From: an uncultured Candidatus Saccharibacteria bacterium
GTDB lineage: Bacteria; Patescibacteriota; WWE3; 2-01-FULL-39-13
Direction: 5' to 3'
Assembly: GCA_965230915.1 (NCBI GenBank)
Contig: OZ246395.1
Coordinates: forward strand, 339,535 to 403,534
Length of the DNA: 64,000 bases
Below the pieces are notes generated by a model. The model did not search any database. It saw only the letters and a list, made by a program, of their open reading frames with translations, and was not told the origin of the DNA. The translations under genes and the position numbers were made by a program. Below, in pieces: positions 5,364 through 63,439 of the stretch; positions within the stretch are counted from its first letter, which is position 1, and each line of letters opens with the position of its first letter.

Positions 5364-5493
5364 GTTAAGATACAAAACAGCTTCGAACACAGTCTAGGGT
5401 CGCAGCCATGAGGATTTTATTGATATTACAGCCATTTAAATACAATCTAATATTTTAAACGTTTGTAAATGATTCTTTATCTCTCATGGTCTA

Positions 5494-13148: not shown

Positions 13149-13171
13149 GGATATCTGCTTGAGCACAAAGA

Positions 13172-13218
13172 GAGCTCTAAATCCGCAACGATTTTTGTTG
13201 CAACAGGATTTAGAGCTC
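13172..13218. terminator. Bidirectional intrinsic terminator (nested hairpin) between convergent genes
   Basis: GAGCTCTAAATCC-gcaacgatttttgttgc-aaca-GGATTTAGAGCTC: a perfect 13-bp outer stem enclosing a 5-bp inner stem, followed by T-rich sequence. Lies between the + strand ORF ending 13148 and tsaC (minus, ending 13232). Confidence 0.55.
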
Positions 13219-13231
13219 TCGAGTATTTTAA

Positions 13232-49203: not shown

Positions 49204-49305
49204 AAAATTTTGCGGCTAAAAATTCAATTTTTATCAGCAGTAACTGACTTTTTCAATTGTAACACCATGAATATATATGGAAAGGATTTGTATATTTTTA
49301 TGGGA

Positions 49306-49360
49306 TAAAAAATTCGGACCGAGAACTTGGGTTTTGGGTATATACCCAAGTTCTCGGTCA
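49306..49360 (-). terminator. Strong rho-independent terminator (16-bp perfect stem) on the minus strand
   Basis: Minus-strand reading: GACCGAGAACTTGGGT-atatacccaaa-ACCCAAGTTCTCGGTC followed by CGAATTTTTTAT. It is ~105 nt upstream of the ABC ATPase start codon. Confidence 0.65.
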
Positions 49361-49868
49361 TTCAAACAGAAGGAGGAGGATGGAGGACCTACATTGTAAT
49401 GCAGTTAGGCAAGGCGTAATCGACAACAGTTGATCCAACTAGTTAGTAGAGGGGTTTCTCAAAATGTACGTCTACATTCCGAGTAGCTATTCCCAAGAGG
49501 ATGCACTTTCCGGGCCACGTGTTTTCGTGGTAGACCAATGCGCCATTTCCCTAGCAGTTAAAACTATGTCTCATAGTGAGTTTATCCTTTCTTATGTTTG
49601 TAGCCCTGTGGCCGTGTGCAAAATTCCGTAAAACAAGCCGAAACGCAATGTTTCGCTTAAACTCAAATATTATTCTTAATTCCATAAAAGACAATAAACT
49701 TTCGGGATAAATTGGGGTAAGTCCTGCAGAAAAATGACCAATGGCAATCTGGATCTCACGCTAATGAGAAAAACACCAGATTACCATCGGTCGGTGCGAC
49801 AGAACACAAGTACAGGCCGTACGGAGTCGCCATGTAATCATAAAAATATTTCTAGTGAAAATCAAGAT
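49361..49868 (-). ncRNA. Candidate structured ncRNA or long structured 3' UTR (GC-rich, no ORF of 60 aa or more on this strand)
   Basis: ~500-nt region of ~45-48% GC in a ~34% GC genome, between the metallophosphoesterase stop (49869) and the strong terminator at 49360-49306 on the same strand; multiple local hairpins (e.g. GUACGGCCUGUAC, CGAAAC-gcaau-GUUUCG). Family not identified. Confidence 0.25.
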
Positions 49869-55347: not shown

Positions 55348-55455
55348 ACACCAGTTATATCATTTATGTAGGTATGTGCAATAAAGAGAAAGGAGCCTTT
55401 CTATTTTAAAGAAAGGCTCCTTTTCCCTACCCTGCGAATCCAATTTGAGAATGTG

Positions 55456-57150: not shown

Positions 57151-57370
57151 CTCCTTTATCTTTATTTGGTCTAATTAACTTAAGAATGAACGACATAAAA
57201 CCGGCCTGAATTGTTCCAGCTGCTAAAAGTGGAAACTTTTGAAGTTGCCAAATTAAAGTTTTAATAAGTGCGAAAAACAGTGTTAATTGATAAATAAGAA
57301 ACACTAACGCAATAGTAAAAACTATTAGAAAGGCAGTAATTGTGTAATACATTAATTCGATTGCTTCCAT
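57143..57370 (-). CDS. Small two-TM membrane protein (hypothetical)
   Basis: 75-aa hydrophobic ORF overlapping the downstream gene start by 8 nt. Confidence 0.3.
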   Translation of the reverse strand: MEAIELMYYTITAFLIVFTIALVFLIYQLTLFFALIKTLIWQLQKFPLLAAGTIQAGFMSFILKLIRPNKDKGGV

Positions 57371-57540
57371 ATAGGCCTAATATAGAGCTTTCGTAAAAGA
57401 ATAAAGATAAAATTTTGTAAGAAATTGTTAAGAGTGTAAGGTATGTTGATTATATTTTAATCAGCCTTCGCAGGATGGCAAACTATAGGGCTTTTTCTGT
57501 GCTTCCCCTAACCTGTTCTCTAATATATAATCTTATACCT

Positions 57541-59352
57541 ATGGAACTCCGAAATATCGCTATTATCGCTCACGTTGACCACGGTAAAACCACACTTGTT
57601 GATGGTTTGCTAAAACAATCTAAGACTTTTCGCGAAAATGAAGCCATGATGGGTCAGGACCTTATTATGGATTCTAACGACCAAGAAAGAGAACGTGGAA
57701 TCACGATTTTGGCAAAAAATACAGCAGTCACATATAAAGATGTAAAAATCAACATTGTTGATACCCCAGGACACGCCGACTTTAGCGGTGAAGTTGAACG
57801 TACCCTAAATATGGCCGATGGGGCTATTTTATTGGTTGATGCTCAAGAAGGTCCAATGCCTCAAACTAAGTTTGTTTTAAGAAAAGCTTTAGAATTGGGT
57901 TTAAAAATAATCGTTTTAGTCAATAAAATCGATAAAAAAGATGCAATTATTGATAAAACCTTAAGTCGTGTTTATGATCTTTTCTTGGAACTTGCTACTA
58001 CAGAAGCTCAATTAGATTTCCCGGTTTTATATGCAATTGGTCGCGACGGTAAAGCTTGGGATAATCTTCCAACAGATATGACAGCTCCAGCTGATTTAAC
58101 GCCGGTTTTTGATGCAATTTTAAAATACTTCCCTTCCCCAGCCGTTGATGAAAATGGACCATTTCAAATGTTAGTCTCTTCTTTAGATTGGGATAGTTAT
58201 AAAGGCAAATACGCGGTCGGCCGTGTTAAACGAGGAAAAGTTTCACCAGGATCAGACATCGTTATCATGAAACCTAATGGTACTTCAGAAAAGACAAAAG
58301 TCGACAAAGTTTTTGTTAATCAGGGTTTAAAACGTGTCGAAGCTGCTGAAGCCTTGTCAGGAGATATCGTTGCTATAACCGGAGTAAAAACCGCCGAAAT
58401 TGGTGATACTTTAGCCGATGCTGCAAATCCTGAAGCCTTGCCTACTATTCAAATTAGCGAGCCAACTCTTAGCATTTCTATCGGGCCAAACACTTCCCCT
58501 TTTATGGGTAAAGAAGGATCACTTTTAACAGGCCGTCAAATTTTAGAAAGAATTGAAAAAGAACTCCAAACTAACGTTGCAATGCGTTTAAATATCGAAA
58601 ATGGGCAATATATATTGTCAGGTCGTGGAGAATTGCACATCTGTGTTTTCTTAGAAACACTTAGTCGTGAAGGTTTTGAAATCGAAATCGGTAAACCACG
58701 CGTTATAACAAAAATGGTAGACAGAGTAGAAATGGAACCTGTCGAAGAATATACAATTGATGTTCCTACTGAATTTGTAGGAGCAATCACAAGCGAAATG
58801 GGAAAAAGAAACGCCATGATGAGCTCTCATACCGAAGACACCCCAGGCCAAACAAGATTAGTATTTGAAGTTCCTACTAGAAATATTTTAGGTTTACGAA
58901 GTGTGATTTTAACCCTTTCGAAAGGAACAGGTGTAGCTAACTCAAACTTCTTAAGGTATCAAAAAGTATCCGGAGATAACAAAAAACTTCGACGCGGAGT
59001 ACTAATTGCCTTCGAAACTGGTAAAGCTACAGCATACGGATTAAACGCCGCTCAAGAACGTGGCCCTCTATTCATAGAGCCGGGCGTAATGGTCTATGGA
59101 GGAATGATTGTTGGGTTAAATTCACGCGATATGGACCTTGAAGTAAACGTATGTAAGGCTAAACACTTAACAAATATGCGTTCAAAAGGTGAAGATGGAA
59201 TCATTCTAAATGCACCGATTAAAATGACTTTAGAGCAATGTTTTGGCTTTTTAGAGGATGACGAACTTCTTGAAATTACACCTGAAAGTTTAAGGCTTCG
59301 AAAGAAAATTCTCGATGCTACACTTAGGGCTAAAGCTGCCAGAAAAGGCTAA
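57541..59352 (+). CDS. typA: Translational GTPase TypA/BipA
   Basis: RNIAIIAHVDHGKTTL (G1), DTPGHADF (G3), NKID (G4), EF-G-like domains II-V and the TypA-specific C-terminus. The track ORF starts at 57475; ATG 57541 (MELRNIAII) is the conserved start. Confidence 0.95.
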   Translation: MELRNIAIIAHVDHGKTTLVDGLLKQSKTFRENEAMMGQDLIMDSNDQERERGITILAKNTAVTYKDVKINIVDTPGHADFSGEVERTLNMADGAILLVDAQEGPMPQTKFVLRKALELGLKIIVLVNKIDKKDAIIDKTLSRVYDLFLELATTEAQLDFPVLYAIGRDGKAWDNLPTDMTAPADLTPVFDAILKYFPSPAVDENGPFQMLVSSLDWDSYKGKYAVGRVKRGKVSPGSDIVIMKPNGTSEKTKVDKVFVNQGLKRVEAAEALSGDIVAITGVKTAEIGDTLADAANPEALPTIQISEPTLSISIGPNTSPFMGKEGSLLTGRQILERIEKELQTNVAMRLNIENGQYILSGRGELHICVFLETLSREGFEIEIGKPRVITKMVDRVEMEPVEEYTIDVPTEFVGAITSEMGKRNAMMSSHTEDTPGQTRLVFEVPTRNILGLRSVILTLSKGTGVANSNFLRYQKVSGDNKKLRRGVLIAFETGKATAYGLNAAQERGPLFIEPGVMVYGGMIVGLNSRDMDLEVNVCKAKHLTNMRSKGEDGIILNAPIKMTLEQCFGFLEDDELLEITPESLRLRKKILDATLRAKAARKG

Positions 59353-60024: not shown

Positions 60025-60309
60025 TTAGTTTCTGAAACCGCCATTACCTCTAGAACCTTCTTCTTTTGGTCTAGCTATGTTAACAACGATTGATCTTCCT
60101 CCTAATTCTGTACCGTTTAAGGTATCGACTGCTTTTTGAGCTTCTTCTTCTGTTTCGAATTCTACGAAACCGAATCCTTTGCTTCTGTTAGTAGCACGAT
60201 CGATTATTATGCTTGCGCTAACGACATTTCCGCATTGTGCGAAGTAGTCTCTAAGTTCAGCTTCAGTAGTAGAATATGGAATTCCTCCTACAAATAATTT
60301 TTTAGACAT
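60025..60309 (-). CDS. RRM-domain RNA-binding protein with Gly/Arg-rich tail
   Basis: RNP2 KLFVGGIPYS and RNP1 KGFGFVEF motifs; C-terminal RGNGGFRN. Confidence 0.85.
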   Translation of the reverse strand: MSKKLFVGGIPYSTTEAELRDYFAQCGNVVSASIIIDRATNRSKGFGFVEFETEEEAQKAVDTLNGTELGGRSIVVNIARPKEEGSRGNGGFRN

Positions 60310-60446
60310 TAAATATCACCGCCCAAATAATAATTTCTGTTAAACCGTGAAAATTTTGCGAGGTTAAACTAGCGTATTTACGTTCGAACAGATCATTATG
60401 CACTGTGTAAATTATATATCAGACTATGAGCTTTGTTAATAGGGGT

Positions 60447-60495
60447 AAAAAAAGCAGGGGGTCCTAGATTTGGTTATATTCTAGGAACACCCCTG
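60447..60495 (-). terminator. Rho-independent terminator on the minus strand
   Basis: Minus-strand reading: CAGGGGTGTTCCTAGA-atataaccaaa-TCTAGGACCCCCTG followed by CTTTTTTTACC. It lies ~150 nt upstream of the RRM gene start. Confidence 0.6.
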
Positions 60496-61085
60496 AAGCG
60501 GCTTGCCATTTGGCTTGCGTAGGGCCCTGCATGGCCAAGTCGCTTTGAACCAACAAACGGAACTACGTAGTGGGATCTCTGATCATGGCGTACCTCTCAA
60601 GTGAAGTTTCAGCGCCTGAATGATTTCCGTGAGACTTCGTTAAGCAGAATCAATCGAGCCTCATTTCTCTACCATACTACCCGTTTGTAGTATGAAAAGA
60701 ATTATACGAGCAACAAAGCCATTTTTGCAATACCCCAATTTGAGCAATTTCTTAATTTTATGTTTTGGTGGATAAAAGCTAGAGGTGCTTATCTTAAAGT
60801 AAAACAGGGAGGAATCTCTCAAGATTGGTCCGAACGAATTCGGTAATCTTAAGAAACCCTCCCTTAAAGTTTTAGCGATAGGCTAAAAATCTACGAGCCT
60901 ACCGCTCTATGGCTTCACCCCAAGGGGTGGCCGCTCGGCGTCGTCAGGCGCTGCTTGTGGCTGAATAATTTACCAAAACCCTACATTTCCTAGCTTTCCT
61001 ACACATGGGAAAAACCTTTCTGCCGATTTGGCATCAGTCGGATGGATAAATAGAGCCCACGGCTCACCTGCTCTTCGCAGTGGCG
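60496..61085 (-). ncRNA. Candidate large structured ncRNA (~600 nt) on the minus strand
   Basis: ~800-nt interval with no ORF of 60 aa or more on either strand, ~45% GC (flanks ~34%), bounded by a putative promoter (TTGCAT-N18-TATACT, minus strand ~61117-61088) and the terminator at 60495-60447; several internal hairpins. Family unassigned. Confidence 0.3.
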
Positions 61086-61087
61086 AT

Positions 61088-61117
61088 AGTATAGTTCCAT
61101 AGCCACTTTATATGCAA
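61088..61117 (-). promoter_or_regulatory. Putative sigma70-type promoter (TTGCAT-N18-TATACT) for the candidate ncRNA
   Basis: Minus-strand reading TTGCATataaagtggctatggaacTATACT; positioned to start transcription at ~61080, reading toward the terminator at 60495. Confidence 0.3.
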
Positions 61118-61203
61118 TAGGCAATTTGAAGGCAAATTGTGTTTGGTATTTTCTGGTTTTGGCTATAATATAGAGGAAGTCGATTTTGGCTTGGTGGGTA
61201 ACT

Positions 61204-61890
61204 ATGGATAAAATAATCGTTTTGCTTCAGAACAATGAAGAGTATGAGGAATTCCTTTACAAGCTTCTCTCTGACCATAACTACATAATAAAAAGAGCAA
61301 AGAGTGATATCGAAGTCTTGAACCATTTAGATGAGCTAAATCCTGACCTAATCATTTCTTCTTATAATCTTCAAAATTTAGATGGAACTTCGTTTTTCAA
61401 TAAAATTACGGAGGACTACCCGGATATCCCGGTCTTATTCGTAAGCTCCCAAAGAGATCCGGAGCTAATAGCTTCACTTTTGAAATATCCTAATTGTGAT
61501 TTTATGCTAAAGCCTGTTGTTACAGAAGAGCTATTGGCACGAGTTAAAGTTTTGACCACCCCAGTAAATTTATCTATCAATAGAAAAAATCCTGATAGCG
61601 TAAAAATTAAAGATTTAATATTAAATACAAAAACAAAAAATGTTACTCGTGGAAGTCGAACAATTGCACTAACTCCTAAAGAATATAATCTACTCGAATA
61701 CTTAATGTTCAATAAGAATACGGTTTTATCCCGTGATAGCATTTTAAGCAAAGTCTGGGGAACTGTTACAGATGTTTCAGATAGAATTGTCGATGTTTAT
61801 ATTGGATACCTACGCGAGAAAATTGATTCCAAAGAAAAGATAAAATTGATCGAGACTGTACCTGGCTTTGGTTACTGCATAAAAGATTGA
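61204..61890 (+). CDS. Orphan OmpR-type response-regulator-like protein (atypical receiver + winged-helix DNA-binding domain)
   Basis: C-terminal LTPKEYNLLEYLMFN...VSDRIVDVYIGYLREKI...PGFGYCI is a clear OmpR/PhoB winged helix; the N-terminal ~120 aa resembles a receiver domain but with a poorly conserved acidic pocket; no cognate kinase adjacent. The track starts at 61186; ATG 61204 is used here. Confidence 0.6.
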   Translation: MDKIIVLLQNNEEYEEFLYKLLSDHNYIIKRAKSDIEVLNHLDELNPDLIISSYNLQNLDGTSFFNKITEDYPDIPVLFVSSQRDPELIASLLKYPNCDFMLKPVVTEELLARVKVLTTPVNLSINRKNPDSVKIKDLILNTKTKNVTRGSRTIALTPKEYNLLEYLMFNKNTVLSRDSILSKVWGTVTDVSDRIVDVYIGYLREKIDSKEKIKLIETVPGFGYCIKD

Positions 61891-61990
61891 TTCTTCTTAC
61901 TTTCTTCTTACATAAATTTAACTGAATTTTAAAGCTCATTCCCTACTCTTATACTAATTAATTAGTTTAGTTTTAGGAGGTGAATTTCAA

Positions 61991-62239
61991 ATGTTAGGAG
62001 TAATACTTTGGATAATACTAGGTGCTTTAGCAGGATGGATCGCTTCAATGATTATGGGAACCGATGCAAGTATGGGACCACTCGCAAATATAGTAGTCGG
62101 AATTATCGGTGCTGTAGTCGGTGGGTTCATAATGACACTTCTAGGTTTTGGAGATGTTTCTGGCTTTAACTTATACAGCTTACTAGTTGCAATACTAGGT
62201 GCAGTAATCGTTATTTGGTTAGTTAAGGTTATCGCGTAA
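61991..62239 (+). CDS. GlsB/YeaQ/YmgE-family (transglycosylase-associated) small membrane stress protein
   Basis: GVILWIILGALAGWIASMIMG...IVVGIIGAVVGGFIM: the diagnostic Gly-zipper helices; strong GGAGGTG SD. Confidence 0.7.
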   Translation: MLGVILWIILGALAGWIASMIMGTDASMGPLANIVVGIIGAVVGGFIMTLLGFGDVSGFNLYSLLVAILGAVIVIWLVKVIA

Positions 62240-62269
62240 TTAGTTTTTTAATTTGGAGGAAAATAAAAA

Positions 62270-62809
62270 ATGGCAGACGTACAAGAAAACACAAACTCTG
62301 TTGTCTCTTGGATTGCACTTTTAATCGGGGCTCTTGCTCTGCCTATCGCAGTTGTAGCATACAACCGTTCCGGTGAAGACATTAGCACAACAGTAGAAAA
62401 GAAAACTGCTGATGTTGTTGATGAAGCGCAAGACACCACCGCTCAAGTTGGAAGTAAAATGGCGGATGTCGGAAATGACATCGCTCAAAATGCGGCCGAA
62501 ATGAGAACTCGAGCAGAACTTGAAGCTAGATTGATTCAAATTCAATCTGAAGTGAACGCCAACAATGTTACAGATAATACTGTGAAAGAAGTTCAGGATT
62601 TAAGGACAGATTTAAGAAATACTTATGCTAATGCTTCTGATGAAGCTAAAGAACAAGTAGATGAAATGGATTCTGATTTAGCAGAACTTGAAATGCAGGT
62701 TCGTCAGGATACAGCAGCTGCTTTAGCTAATATAAGTAGCTTATTAGAAAGGTTAAGACAAGATGTGATGTCGACAGACGATGACGGTATGAATGATCAG
62801 GGTAATTAA
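62270..62809 (+). CDS. Hypothetical protein with N-terminal TM and long coiled coil
   Basis: 179 aa; TM (VVSWIALLIGALALPIAVVAY), then an Ala/Glu/Gln-rich helix. Confidence 0.45.
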   Translation: MADVQENTNSVVSWIALLIGALALPIAVVAYNRSGEDISTTVEKKTADVVDEAQDTTAQVGSKMADVGNDIAQNAAEMRTRAELEARLIQIQSEVNANNVTDNTVKEVQDLRTDLRNTYANASDEAKEQVDEMDSDLAELEMQVRQDTAAALANISSLLERLRQDVMSTDDDGMNDQGN

Positions 62810-62821
62810 CAAGTGAACTGA

Positions 62822-62848
62822 AGCCCGCTTTCAAATTGAAAGCGGGCT
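62822..62848. terminator. Perfect palindromic hairpin between convergent genes (putative bidirectional terminator)
   Basis: AGCCCGCTTTCAA-a-TTGAAAGCGGGCT (13-bp arms) between the + strand ORF ending 62809 and thpR (minus, ending 62855); flanking U-tracts are weak. Confidence 0.45.
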
Positions 62849-62854
62849 CAACCT

Positions 62855-63439
62855 TTATATCAAAGGAATCTTATACAAAACATCCTGAAATTTCGGACTC
62901 TCCAGATTCTCTTTTCCGTATATATAGACTTCTTTTAATTTAGTTTTCCATTCAATAGTTGTTAATAGGTTCTCAATCATTTTTCTATGCTCAGCAAATT
63001 GGATTTCAGATTCTGTAGTTTTTAGTCTTCCTAAAGTTAAATGTGGAATGAATCCGCGTTCTTCATCCCTATTATATGAATCTAAATGGGATGCTAAGTG
63101 TTCTCGCAATGTAATAAGTTTATCTGAGTGTTCGACTTTCATGTATAAAACATACGGAGTTTTTTCTACTTTCGACTCGCGATTAAATATGCCGAGTCCA
63201 TTTAGCTTAATTTCATCACCAACAATTATTTCTTTTTCTTCATGTAGAATTTCTGCAATTTCATTTAAACTTTTTGTATTCTGCTTGCCTAAATAATATA
63301 GAGTAATATGAGCTTCGCCAGCGGCTACAGCCGACATATTAGGCATGTATGCTTGTAGCTTCTTTTGTACAATTTGCAATTCGTGTTTGAACTCAGGATT
63401 TATTGGAAATCCGATAAAGCAATTATAAAATTCTTTCAT
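62855..63439 (-). CDS. thpR: RNA 2',3'-cyclic phosphodiesterase (2H phosphoesterase, LigT/ThpR family)
   Basis: Two H-x-T/S-x motifs at the expected spacing (EAHITLYYLG and IPHLTLGRL); 194 aa. Confidence 0.8.
   Translation of the reverse strand: MKEFYNCFIGFPINPEFKHELQIVQKKLQAYMPNMSAVAAGEAHITLYYLGKQNTKSLNEIAEILHEEKEIIVGDEIKLNGLGIFNRESKVEKTPYVLYMKVEHSDKLITLREHLASHLDSYNRDEERGFIPHLTLGRLKTTESEIQFAEHRKMIENLLTTIEWKTKLKEVYIYGKENLESPKFQDVLYKIPLI

Follow-up and report, generated by a model that had tools for sequence, protein, structure and literature searches.

Two tandem candidate structured RNA genes beside a single-RRM gene in a Saccharibacteria-like bacterium

Introduction

What does the largest non-coding gap in a stretch of a very small bacterial genome encode? 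The window analysed here comprises 64,000 nucleotides of an uncultured Candidatus Saccharibacteria bacterium (assembly GCA_965230915.1, contig OZ246395.1, positions 339,535 to 403,534 of the forward strand). In it, a gene for an RNA-binding protein with a single RNA-recognition motif (RRM; 60309..60025, minus strand) and a gene for an orphan response regulator (ATG at 61204, plus strand) are separated by a gap (60310-61203; 876-894 nt) in which the gene callers applied to two identical public contigs accepted no open reading frame (ORF). A sequence-only reading had taken this gap for one transcription unit of ~630 nt, a non-coding RNA (ncRNA) with possible RNase P-like motifs. We lean, with some reserve, towards a different reading: two independent, tandem structured ncRNA genes on the minus strand (units A and B), belonging to an undescribed, lineage-restricted group of accessory RNAs that would be driven by the regulator, stabilised by a Shine-Dalgarno (SD)-like sequence and partnered by the RRM protein.

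Results

Composition and folding of the gap

The gap is the largest ORF-free stretch of the window. Its part 60447-61117 has 45.0% GC compared to 36.6% in the whole window, and the minimum free energy (MFE) of its minus strand is far below that of shuffled sequences (z = -5.77; -3.88 for the plus strand). The corresponding gap of a relative without any unit (L011), used as a control, folds with z = +0.99. The promoter TTGCAT-N18-TATACT (61117..61088, minus strand), the strong terminator followed by seven U (14-bp stem 60493..60457, U7 60453..60447) and the internal GGGAGG...CCUCCC hairpin (60863..60807) were all described in the sequence-only reading, together with the GC content of ~45% and the size rank of the gap, and we found each of them in place. 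GC content, promoter, terminator and folding indicate that the observation is real and beyond chance.

Two DnaA-box-like 9-mers lie on the minus strand (TTATCCACC and TTATCCATC, 60767-60775 and 61041-61049) and are probably chance matches. A replication origin was rejected in spite of them: with its high GC content, its strand specificity and its borders (a promoter on one side, a terminator on the other), the region looks like a transcription unit and not like an origin.

Two units instead of one

The stretch was divided into two units, not one, because it contains an internal promoter (60730..60701), a spacer of 32% GC between blocks of 48.6% and 47.6% GC, a conserved block upstream of the internal promoter, and a terminator-like hairpin at the end of unit A (Table 1). 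The upstream block (60778..60726) is 78% identical over 54 nt to positions 5406-5459 of the related locus L003. Third codon positions of the RRM gene are just 47% identical in the same comparison (synonymous sites are saturated), which argues that the promoter region of unit B is under selection. The hairpin that ends unit A corresponds in position and build to similar long end hairpins, followed by 7-8 U, in the promoter-distal units of L003 and L014; the one of L003 is a direct neighbour of the response regulator.

A single RNA of ~630-650 nt (61117->60447), perhaps a divergent RNase P or another large housekeeping RNA, would fit the folding of the whole stretch (z = -5.8), the long-range pairs that join both halves in the full-region MFE structure of the minus strand, and the weak U-tract of unit A. 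Strings like GGAAAGUCC and GGGUGAAA...GCGGUAAG, and a hairpin followed by GAAAGG, superficially recall P3 and the 5' strand of P4. In RNase P RNA, the P4 helix is formed by CR-I (GGAAAGUCC...) with CR-V (...ACAGAAxCCGGCUUA), and helices P1-P5 and P7-P12 belong to the model as well. The motifs cited in the sequence-only reading do occur (60999..60989, 60921..60911, 60905..60898 and 60785..60775), but they are short and partial, and the proposed P4 partner CCUCUAGCUUU (60785..60775) lies downstream of the unit A terminator. The internal promoter and the AT-rich spacer also stand against one RNA, as does the failure of the RNase P, tmRNA, SRP, 6S and large-ncRNA models to match. In relatives, the gap holds from zero to two units unrelated in sequence; an essential, universal RNA would not vanish from L011 or vary in this way. 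We give the single-RNA explanation next to no credence. What stands of the earlier proposal is a structured, ORF-free, promoter-to-terminator region on the minus strand, outside the known families; its single RNA of ~630 nt and the relation to RNase P do not.

Comparison with known RNA families

With cmscan and Rfam 15, no match reached the gathering score anywhere in the window. Permissive filters over 60250-61250 (E<=10) gave three chance-level matches only (sau-19, IS009 and HCV_SL1412; E 1.6-6.5), and none to the RNase P, tmRNA, signal recognition particle (SRP) or large-ncRNA models that the earlier reading had proposed for a check. That reading had itself named three things that together would speak against it: an rnpB elsewhere in the genome, the lack of an Rfam match here, and the lack of conservation of the region in relatives. 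The latter two were found. Covariance models for RNase P (bacterial A/B, archaeal and type T), tmRNA, SRP, 6S, OLE, GOLLD, ROOL, HEARO and raiA did not match, eight related loci gave no relevant Rfam match at E<=5, and neither tRNA nor tmRNA genes were detected in the window by ARAGORN.

Other kinds of element were rejected as well. There was no conserved or hydrophobic toxin ORF of a type I toxin-antitoxin system; GAAAGG occurs about once per unit (counted by eye), not in the repeated array of a Csr/Rsm-type sponge; and a mobile repeat (MITE/REP/BOX-like) was rejected because blastn found no second copy in the window or in any of the loci, and the C2 boundaries (see below) carry no target duplication. 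Own promoter, intrinsic terminator and lack of a conserved ORF, the marks of a stand-alone small RNA (sRNA) gene, were found in units A and B and in ten units of relatives. We read the units as new, unclassified stand-alone bacterial sRNA genes; they match no described family.

Unusually long terminators were considered as a hallmark of the units and rejected, as perfect 13-16-bp inverted repeats occur elsewhere in the window, several of them intergenic. Intergenic repeats of this kind (13-15 bp), at 13170-13220, 55389-55423 (itself AAAGGAGCCTTTCT/AGAAAGGCTCCTTT) and 62822-62848, are terminators of the bidirectional or long-stem type, so this genome generally makes use of very long terminator stems.

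Presence and absence of units in relatives

By its RRM protein, the window falls within Patescibacteria, and the metagenomes SRR14271372 and SRR14271365 carry a locus identical to that of the window. Related loci were taken as contigs encoding close homologues of the RRM protein and of the response regulator. The gap upstream of the RRM gene holds two promoter-plus-terminator units in L003 (1061 nt), two units in L014 (1057 nt), one in L007 and its strain variants (522 nt), one each in L012 and L015 (536 nt in L012), and none in L011 (304 nt, 26% GC). The contigs L019, L021 and L022 end in the gap and contain parts of units; a JGI contig with a gap of 799 nt was judged by gene order only. A more distant RRM homologue (P0010) lies in another gene context, with no such gap. 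Units of relatives are 237-432 nt long and separately terminated. Across units, GC is 46-54%, and folding z-scores, taken for five units, run from -2.8 to -5.6.

A third unit of the window, C2, lies in its second-largest gap (Table 1), upstream of MacB-type ABC transporter genes. In L023-L026, contigs of the L007 lineage, the same flanking genes are 144 nt apart and C2 is missing, while the transporter promoter is retained (L023). The units are accessory, not housekeeping, since the syntenic gap holds 0, 1 or 2 of them and C2 is missing in L023.

Could the units be cis-acting leaders or attenuators, with conditional read-through (cold, translation stress) into the RRM gene or the ABC transporter genes of C2? 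They always lie upstream of the next gene and on its strand, a short leader ORF with a terminator resembles ribosome-mediated attenuation, and RRM proteins of this type carry cold-inducible annotation. However, the RRM gene keeps its own promoter and leader in every lineage, L011 included, and the promoter of the ABC transporter is still in place in L023. No antiterminator is evident for the terminators, whose hairpins of 14-20 bp are very stable, and two serial units would both need read-through. Because the transporter and RRM promoters persist where the unit is absent, we read the units as stand-alone genes that are gained and lost and not as leaders of downstream genes; the attenuator explanation is very unlikely.

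Sequence divergence

Only three pairs of units were alignable by blastn and nhmmer: L007 with the proximal unit of L014 (L014B; 67% identity), L012 with L015 (~73-77%), and the 3' 170 nt of unit B with L019 (58%), a diverged homologue also present in L020. Other unit-to-unit MAFFT alignments were not credible, and unit A has no alignable close homologue; its start TATACTATCG and the next hairpin are in common with the regulator-adjacent unit of L022. Where synonymous sites are saturated between two lineages, even orthologous units would be expected to fail to align.

Relative to L019, the window is 93-97% identical in the RRM coding sequence with its leader and 87% in the Gmad2 neighbour, compared to 37-63% per 30-nt window in unit B and 30-47% in ordinary intergenic DNA. 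Evolution faster than neutral was suggested by the difference between 58% identity in unit B and 87% at third codon positions (window against L019), and it was rejected given the level of ordinary intergenic DNA. By this comparison, the units are weakly constrained in sequence and not hyper-evolving. The group is found only in a small clade of Saccharibacteria-like bacteria of the candidate phyla radiation (CPR); it is lineage-restricted and diverges fast.

One may ask whether the stretch has any present function at all, or is decaying foreign or formerly coding DNA, or a set of chance hairpins together with the terminators of genes. Presence of the units varies between close relatives, no function or target has been assigned to them, and 58% unit identity goes along with 96% identical RRM coding sequences in the same genomes. 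Against this, unconstrained intergenic DNA of the clade, as in the L011 gap, is AT-rich and unstructured where the units are GC-rich; a promoter and a terminator are kept in each unit; compensatory changes are seen (see below); and conserved blocks stand in diverged sequence (CCGUUUGUUG in unit B and L019, and the 27-nt 5' end that is identical in L007 and L014B). A phage or plasmid origin was rejected, as no similarity to either was found. On balance, we consider absence of function decidedly unlikely.

Three strains of the L007 family differ by ~0.1% over ~900 nt, and yet a segment of 26-45 nt (L007 5620-5645; also L008 and L010) is completely different between them, with insertions and deletions. 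This hypervariable segment belongs to the RNA unit and directly precedes, on the 5' side, the hairpin and AGAAAGG module described below. Contigs L004, L005, L006 and L009 of the same study break exactly at its 3' edge, which suggests that several variants coexist within samples. A bolder conjecture, to which we attach very little probability, is that the units form a class of accessory RNA genes spread over the genomes of these epibiotic CPR bacteria. Its members would be gained and lost, would diversify locally, and would be turned on by a dedicated regulator of the OmpR type and act with the RRM protein, part of each RNA being a rapidly exchangeable specificity segment. Were it true, the exchangeable segment would point to a programmable or arms-race RNA (recognition of host, phage or competitor), not to an ordinary regulator.

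Common architecture and the Shine-Dalgarno-like module

Most of the ten units examined in seven loci are preceded by (A)TTGCA(T/A) or TTGACA, a spacing of 17/18 nt and TATAAT/TATACT (exceptions are TTGATT in L022 and a less clear spacing in L003A). Most start 5-8 nt past TATAAT/TATACT; in L012 and L015, the start was placed right behind the -10 element. Unit B, L003B, L007/L014B, L012/L015, L022A and C2 have a hairpin at their 5' end or close to it. In unit A, the segment of the 5' hairpin (Table 1) is paired otherwise in the MFE structure of the unit, and the full-region fold forms only its core CUGC/GCAG.

A k-mer analysis revealed GAAAGG in 7 of the 10 units (0.72 expected) and AGAAAGG in 5 (0.2 expected), with none on the opposite strand. 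Besides the U-runs of terminators (at least 7 U after hairpins in 6/10 units, none on the opposite strand), this is the sole strand-specific enriched sequence across the units; CCATG is enriched too (7/10). A small hairpin precedes the GAAAGG motif, and in at least seven units AUG or GUG follows 7-12 nt after it. In unit A, the small hairpin (61033..61021) ends at AGAAAGG (61021..61015), 64-70 nt from the estimated 5' end of the RNA, and the AUG at 61006 opens a non-conserved ORF of 20 codons. Genes of the window have ribosome-binding sites of the same motif class (AGAAAGGA, GGAGGTGA and AAAGGAG), so AGAAAGG can be taken as an SD element for this organism. The motif is extended in L012 (726-741) and L015 (213-228) to the 16-nt AAAGGAGGTGATCCAG, which is perfectly complementary to the conserved 3' end of 16S rRNA. 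For both loci, the predicted partner of AAAGGAGGTGATCCAG is GCGGCCAUGGAUCAACUUC, a stretch further downstream that resembles the 16S tail and contains the AUG; the pair would be an intramolecular mimic of SD:anti-SD pairing.

These features raise the possibility that the units are mRNAs or dual-function RNAs for tiny proteins or leader peptides (candidates are MCRKARKCRVLVNYSATSSA and its counterparts), the rest being a 3' untranslated region (UTR) or a regulatory fold. The enrichment of the SD-like motif and of CCATG and the placing of the start codon fit this explanation. So does the pairing predicted in L012/L015 and C2 between the SD and an anti-SD-like stretch further downstream, an arrangement familiar from genes under translational control. 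The ORFs themselves argue otherwise: those behind the motif have 3, 3, 7, 9, 12, 17, 20, 23 and 36 codons and are mutually unrelated, those of L012 and L015 are separated by a frameshift after six codons, and that of L007/L014B is three codons long. In 11 units, every ORF of 15 aa or more was scanned, and none behind an SD was conserved or transmembrane-like; the small-ORF peptides gave no Pfam match and none is hydrophobic or toxin-like; an L36-like CxxC peptide in L022 was rejected for want of Pfam support. Gene callers called no gene in the gap, and each unit has 150-300 nt of GC-rich helices outside the ORF. We judge a coding role unlikely, and for the stand-alone RNA genes favoured here a ribosome-docking role is preferred, because the ORFs are variable in length, unrelated, frameshifted, not hydrophobic and not matched by Pfam.

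Changes in predicted RNA structure

In the L007 family compared to L014B, 16 predicted pairs are changed on both sides, against 4.0 +/- 1.7 in shuffled and 2-4 in slid controls, and three compensatory pairs are in the terminator stem. L012 and L015, at ~23% divergence, differ in their 81 pairs by 5 compensatory and 9 one-sided changes that still pair, with no disruptive change. In unit B compared to L019, 5/28 pairs are changed on both sides. The terminator hairpin of unit B is kept in L019 with other stem bases (CCUAGA/UCUAGG -> CCAGA/UCUGG), the blocks GAUCCCAC and CCGUUUGUUG are conserved, and CCGUUUGUUG is invariant amid a stretch of ~55% identity; pairing of CCGUUUGUUG with the 5' ACUACAAACGG of unit B is possible. 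The counterpart, in unit A of L014, of a hairpin of the window's unit A (60870..60889, Table 1) is UCUUAAGC-AAAUC-GCUUAAGA, with the stem changed and a similar loop (judged by eye on the alignment). The compensatory changes are supportive, not conclusive, for selection on the predicted RNA structures.

Promoter repeats and the response regulator

The promoters of units A and B are alike: two AAATTGC-like direct repeats ~9-11 nt apart are followed by TATTGCA as the -35 element. The pattern A[AT]TTG[CG]-N2-5-A[AT]TTG[CG] has 3 occurrences in the 64-kb window, both strands counted, and two of them are the promoters of units A and B; the third double repeat is at ~5269 on the minus strand. Direct repeats overlapping the -35 element are the classic layout for activators of the OmpR/PhoB type, the family of the divergent response regulator (Table 1). 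The repeats could define its regulon. Homologues of the regulator adjoin units in L003 and L022, and the regulator lies next to the gap in the JGI contig by gene order alone. The units of L014 are flanked by a partial ORF of 116 aa.

The response regulator is apparently the first gene of a small operon (61204-62809, plus strand), in which it is followed by an 82-aa Transglycosylase-associated (GlsB/YmgE-like) membrane protein and a 179-aa apolipoprotein-like helical protein. A 2H-phosphoesterase (LigT-like) gene is located at 62855-63439. With this operon, the cold-inducible-type RRM gene and the LigT-like gene, the neighbourhood looks like a stress island. L007, L012 and L015 lack the regulator operon, and in them the LigT-like gene is the immediate neighbour of the RNA unit.

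The RRM gene and its leader

The promoter of the RRM gene is strong (11/12 consensus matches). Together with an invariant leader hairpin in the 5' UTR (Table 1), it is kept in all nine lineages, unit-free L011 included. Besides the window, the leader element is present in L003, L007, L011, L012, L014, L015, L019 and L021, one of these lineages having saturated synonymous divergence. It has no Rfam match and is probably an autoregulatory or temperature-responsive mRNA element. Pattern scans of genomes and metagenomes for the leader found one locus each, one of them too short to use, and the only species-representative genome with the motif was that of an uncultured Candidatus Saccharibacteria bacterium. 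The leader sequence TCTGTTCGAA...TTTTCACGRTTWAACAGA and the coordinates given here are a handle that aids in gathering homologues and building a family model.

Elsewhere in the window, the TypA/BipA ORF listed at 57475-59352 (625 aa) probably starts at 57541 (MELRNIAII...), given homologues of 603-612 aa. This start leaves an AT-rich divergent promoter region of ~390 nt, with AGAAAGG at 57327.

Table 1. Positions of the RNA units, their elements and the adjoining genes in the 64,000-nt window
Feature	Position	Strand	Remarks
Unit A RNA	60796..61084	minus	~290 nt, 48.6% GC; 5' end estimated from the -10 element; MFE z = -3.2
Unit A promoter TTGCAT-N18-TATACT	61088..61117	minus	
Unit A direct repeats AATTTGC-N4-AAATTGC-N2-ATTGCAT	61112..61138	minus	last repeat is the -35 element; putative activator site
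Unit A 5'-terminal hairpin CACUGC-GAAGA-GCAGGUG	61065..61082	minus	direct sequence reading
Unit A module: hairpin UGCC-AAAUC-GGCA, AGAAAGG, AUG	61004..61033	minus	AGAAAGG 61021..61015; AUG 61006..61004, 8 nt on
Unit A hairpin UUUUUAGC-CUAUC-GCUAAAA	60870..60889	minus	
Unit A terminator GGGAGGGUUUCUUAAGAUU...AAUCUUGAGAGAUUCCUCCC	60796..60863	minus	~20-bp hairpin around a small hairpin, then UGUUUUACUUU
Spacer between units	60695..60795	minus	32% GC; holds unit B promoter and conserved upstream block
Unit B promoter TTGCAA-N18-TATAAT with repeats AAATTGC-N2-AAATTGG-N3-TATTGCAA	60701..60750	minus	promoter 60730..60701
Unit B RNA	60447..60694	minus	~248 nt, 47.6% GC; MFE z = -2.9
Unit B 5' hairpin CAUACUAC-AAACGG-GUAGUAUG	60673..60694	minus	alternative: long-range helix 60691..60681 with 60560..60550
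Unit B intrinsic terminator GGGGUGUUCCUAGA/UCUAGGACCCCC	60447..60493	minus	14-bp stem and U7
RRM gene (single-RRM RNA-binding protein)	60025..60309	minus	directly downstream of the units; own promoter 60439..60411
RRM 5' UTR leader hairpin UCUGUUCGAACGUAAA ... UUUUCACGGUUWAACAGA	60336-60392	minus	encloses a variable ~25-nt loop
Orphan OmpR/PhoB-family response regulator	61204..61890	plus	divergent from the units; Pfam Response_reg and Trans_reg_C
Second-largest gap of the window	49204-49868	minus	ORF-free; folding z = -7.3
Terminator of the upstream phosphoesterase gene	49792-49736	minus	long
Unit C2	~49668-49300	minus	build like units A and B
C2 promoter-like TATTGTC-N17-TAATAT	49696-49667	minus	
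C2 5' hairpin	49656..49639	minus	
C2 AAGAAAGGA and ORF	49593..49572	minus	AUG 10 nt on; 7-codon ORF
C2 CU-rich stretch CCUCCAUCCUCCUCCUUCU	49386-49368	minus	could sequester the SD
C2 terminator	49359-49317	minus	perfect 16 bp

Discussion

The favoured reading of units A and B as tandem, stand-alone RNA genes can be put as a sequence of steps. Transcription would begin at promoters with three AAATTGC-like repeats, the last of which is the -35 element, and the divergent orphan response regulator is the likely driver. The 5' end of the RNA would form a protective stem-loop. A start codon and a tiny, non-conserved ORF come after AGAAAGG, a sequence complementary to the 16S 3' tail (...CCUCCUUUCU); this module may serve as a docking site for the ribosome or its 30S subunit that stabilises the RNA. 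The GC-rich, multi-helix body would be a scaffold for protein binding or regulation, and the adjacent RRM protein is a candidate partner.

Several observations weigh against this reading. The U-tract of unit A (UGUUUUACUUU) is interrupted, and some A-B co-transcript is possible. Unity of the group comes from architecture and a 6-7-nt motif, not from alignment, and the covariation comes from 2-4 sequences per family, with RNAalifold structures chosen partly for covariation. The link to the regulator consists of position and a repeat motif; the units of L007, L012 and L015 have no neighbouring regulator, and L011 has the regulator and the RRM gene yet no unit. AGAAAGG with a start codon is found elsewhere in the window too (6/15 occurrences), and the module of SD and AUG could just mean that tiny ORFs are translated. 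RNAduplex, used to predict targets among 58 translation-start regions, gave nothing above shuffled controls.

The genomes of CPR bacteria (Patescibacteria) are tiny, and very little is known of the regulatory RNAs they encode. GC-rich, structured RNA genes of 250-430 nt are kept here, up to three in this 64-kb window, which implies that these RNAs earn their keep. The neighbourhood of regulator, RNA and RRM protein would be a compact, testable circuit, and a false RNase P candidate has been removed.

RNase P RNA is like this region in its order of size if units A and B are summed, in high GC within an AT-rich genome, and in a hairpin followed by a GAAAG-containing strand. It is unlike it in that the region has no P4 or CR-I to CR-V signature and consists of two variable, non-essential units. 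RNAs of the 6S/Ms1 type, which bind RNA polymerase, are also stand-alone, structured RNAs of the abundant type, drift in sequence while the structure is kept, and are present in two copies in some bacteria. By contrast, the folds predicted here are not one long irregular hairpin with a central bubble and paired ends, and the units are absent in some close relatives.

The Gac/Rsm systems (RsmX/Y/Z, CsrB/C) are made of sRNAs that are activated by a response regulator and sequester an RNA-binding protein. Like the units, these are structured, terminated RNAs of low conservation in variable or tandem copies, with an upstream activating sequence by the -35 element and with a regulator and an RNA-binding protein nearby. 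However, they carry GGA-type repeats, of which there are none here; the regulator here is of the OmpR type and not the GacA/NarL type, and the protein is an RRM protein and not CsrA.

For the SD-like module, the closest parallel is the STAB-SD of cry3A, in which, according to the accounts of Agaisse & Lereclus 1996 in PMC7509114 and PMC12970973, an SD-like GAAAGGAGG in the 5' UTR stabilises the RNA through the 30S subunit. In Bacillus, 30S subunits or ribosomes bound to such RNAs prevent their 5'-to-3' decay, and RNase J1 is blocked by initiating ribosomes (PMC5737220). As in STAB-SD, and also in the hbs and ermC leaders, an SD-like sequence (GAAAGGAGG in STAB-SD; AGAAAGG, or AAAGGAGGUGAUCCAG in L012/L015, here) is in the 5' part, near a 5' structure, and is not tied to a conserved ORF. 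STAB-SD differs in stabilising the mRNAs of real genes, whereas the transcripts here would end at a terminator with no conserved ORF.

For the RRM protein, a parallel is found in Bacteroides thetaiotaomicron, where RbpB, a small protein with a single RRM (RRM-1), binds multicopy sRNAs globally (PMC11697453). Bacteroides have neither Hfq nor CsrA, and the RRM family is linked to cold adaptation (PMC13370968). In comparison with the RNAs FopS and GibS of that system, FopS is ~65-70 nt long, has a simple terminator and, at its 5' end, a seed that is conserved and single-stranded, and is in Rfam, whereas the units here (237-432 nt) are multi-helical and unalignable to FopS. The RRM gene here stands directly beside the RNA genes.

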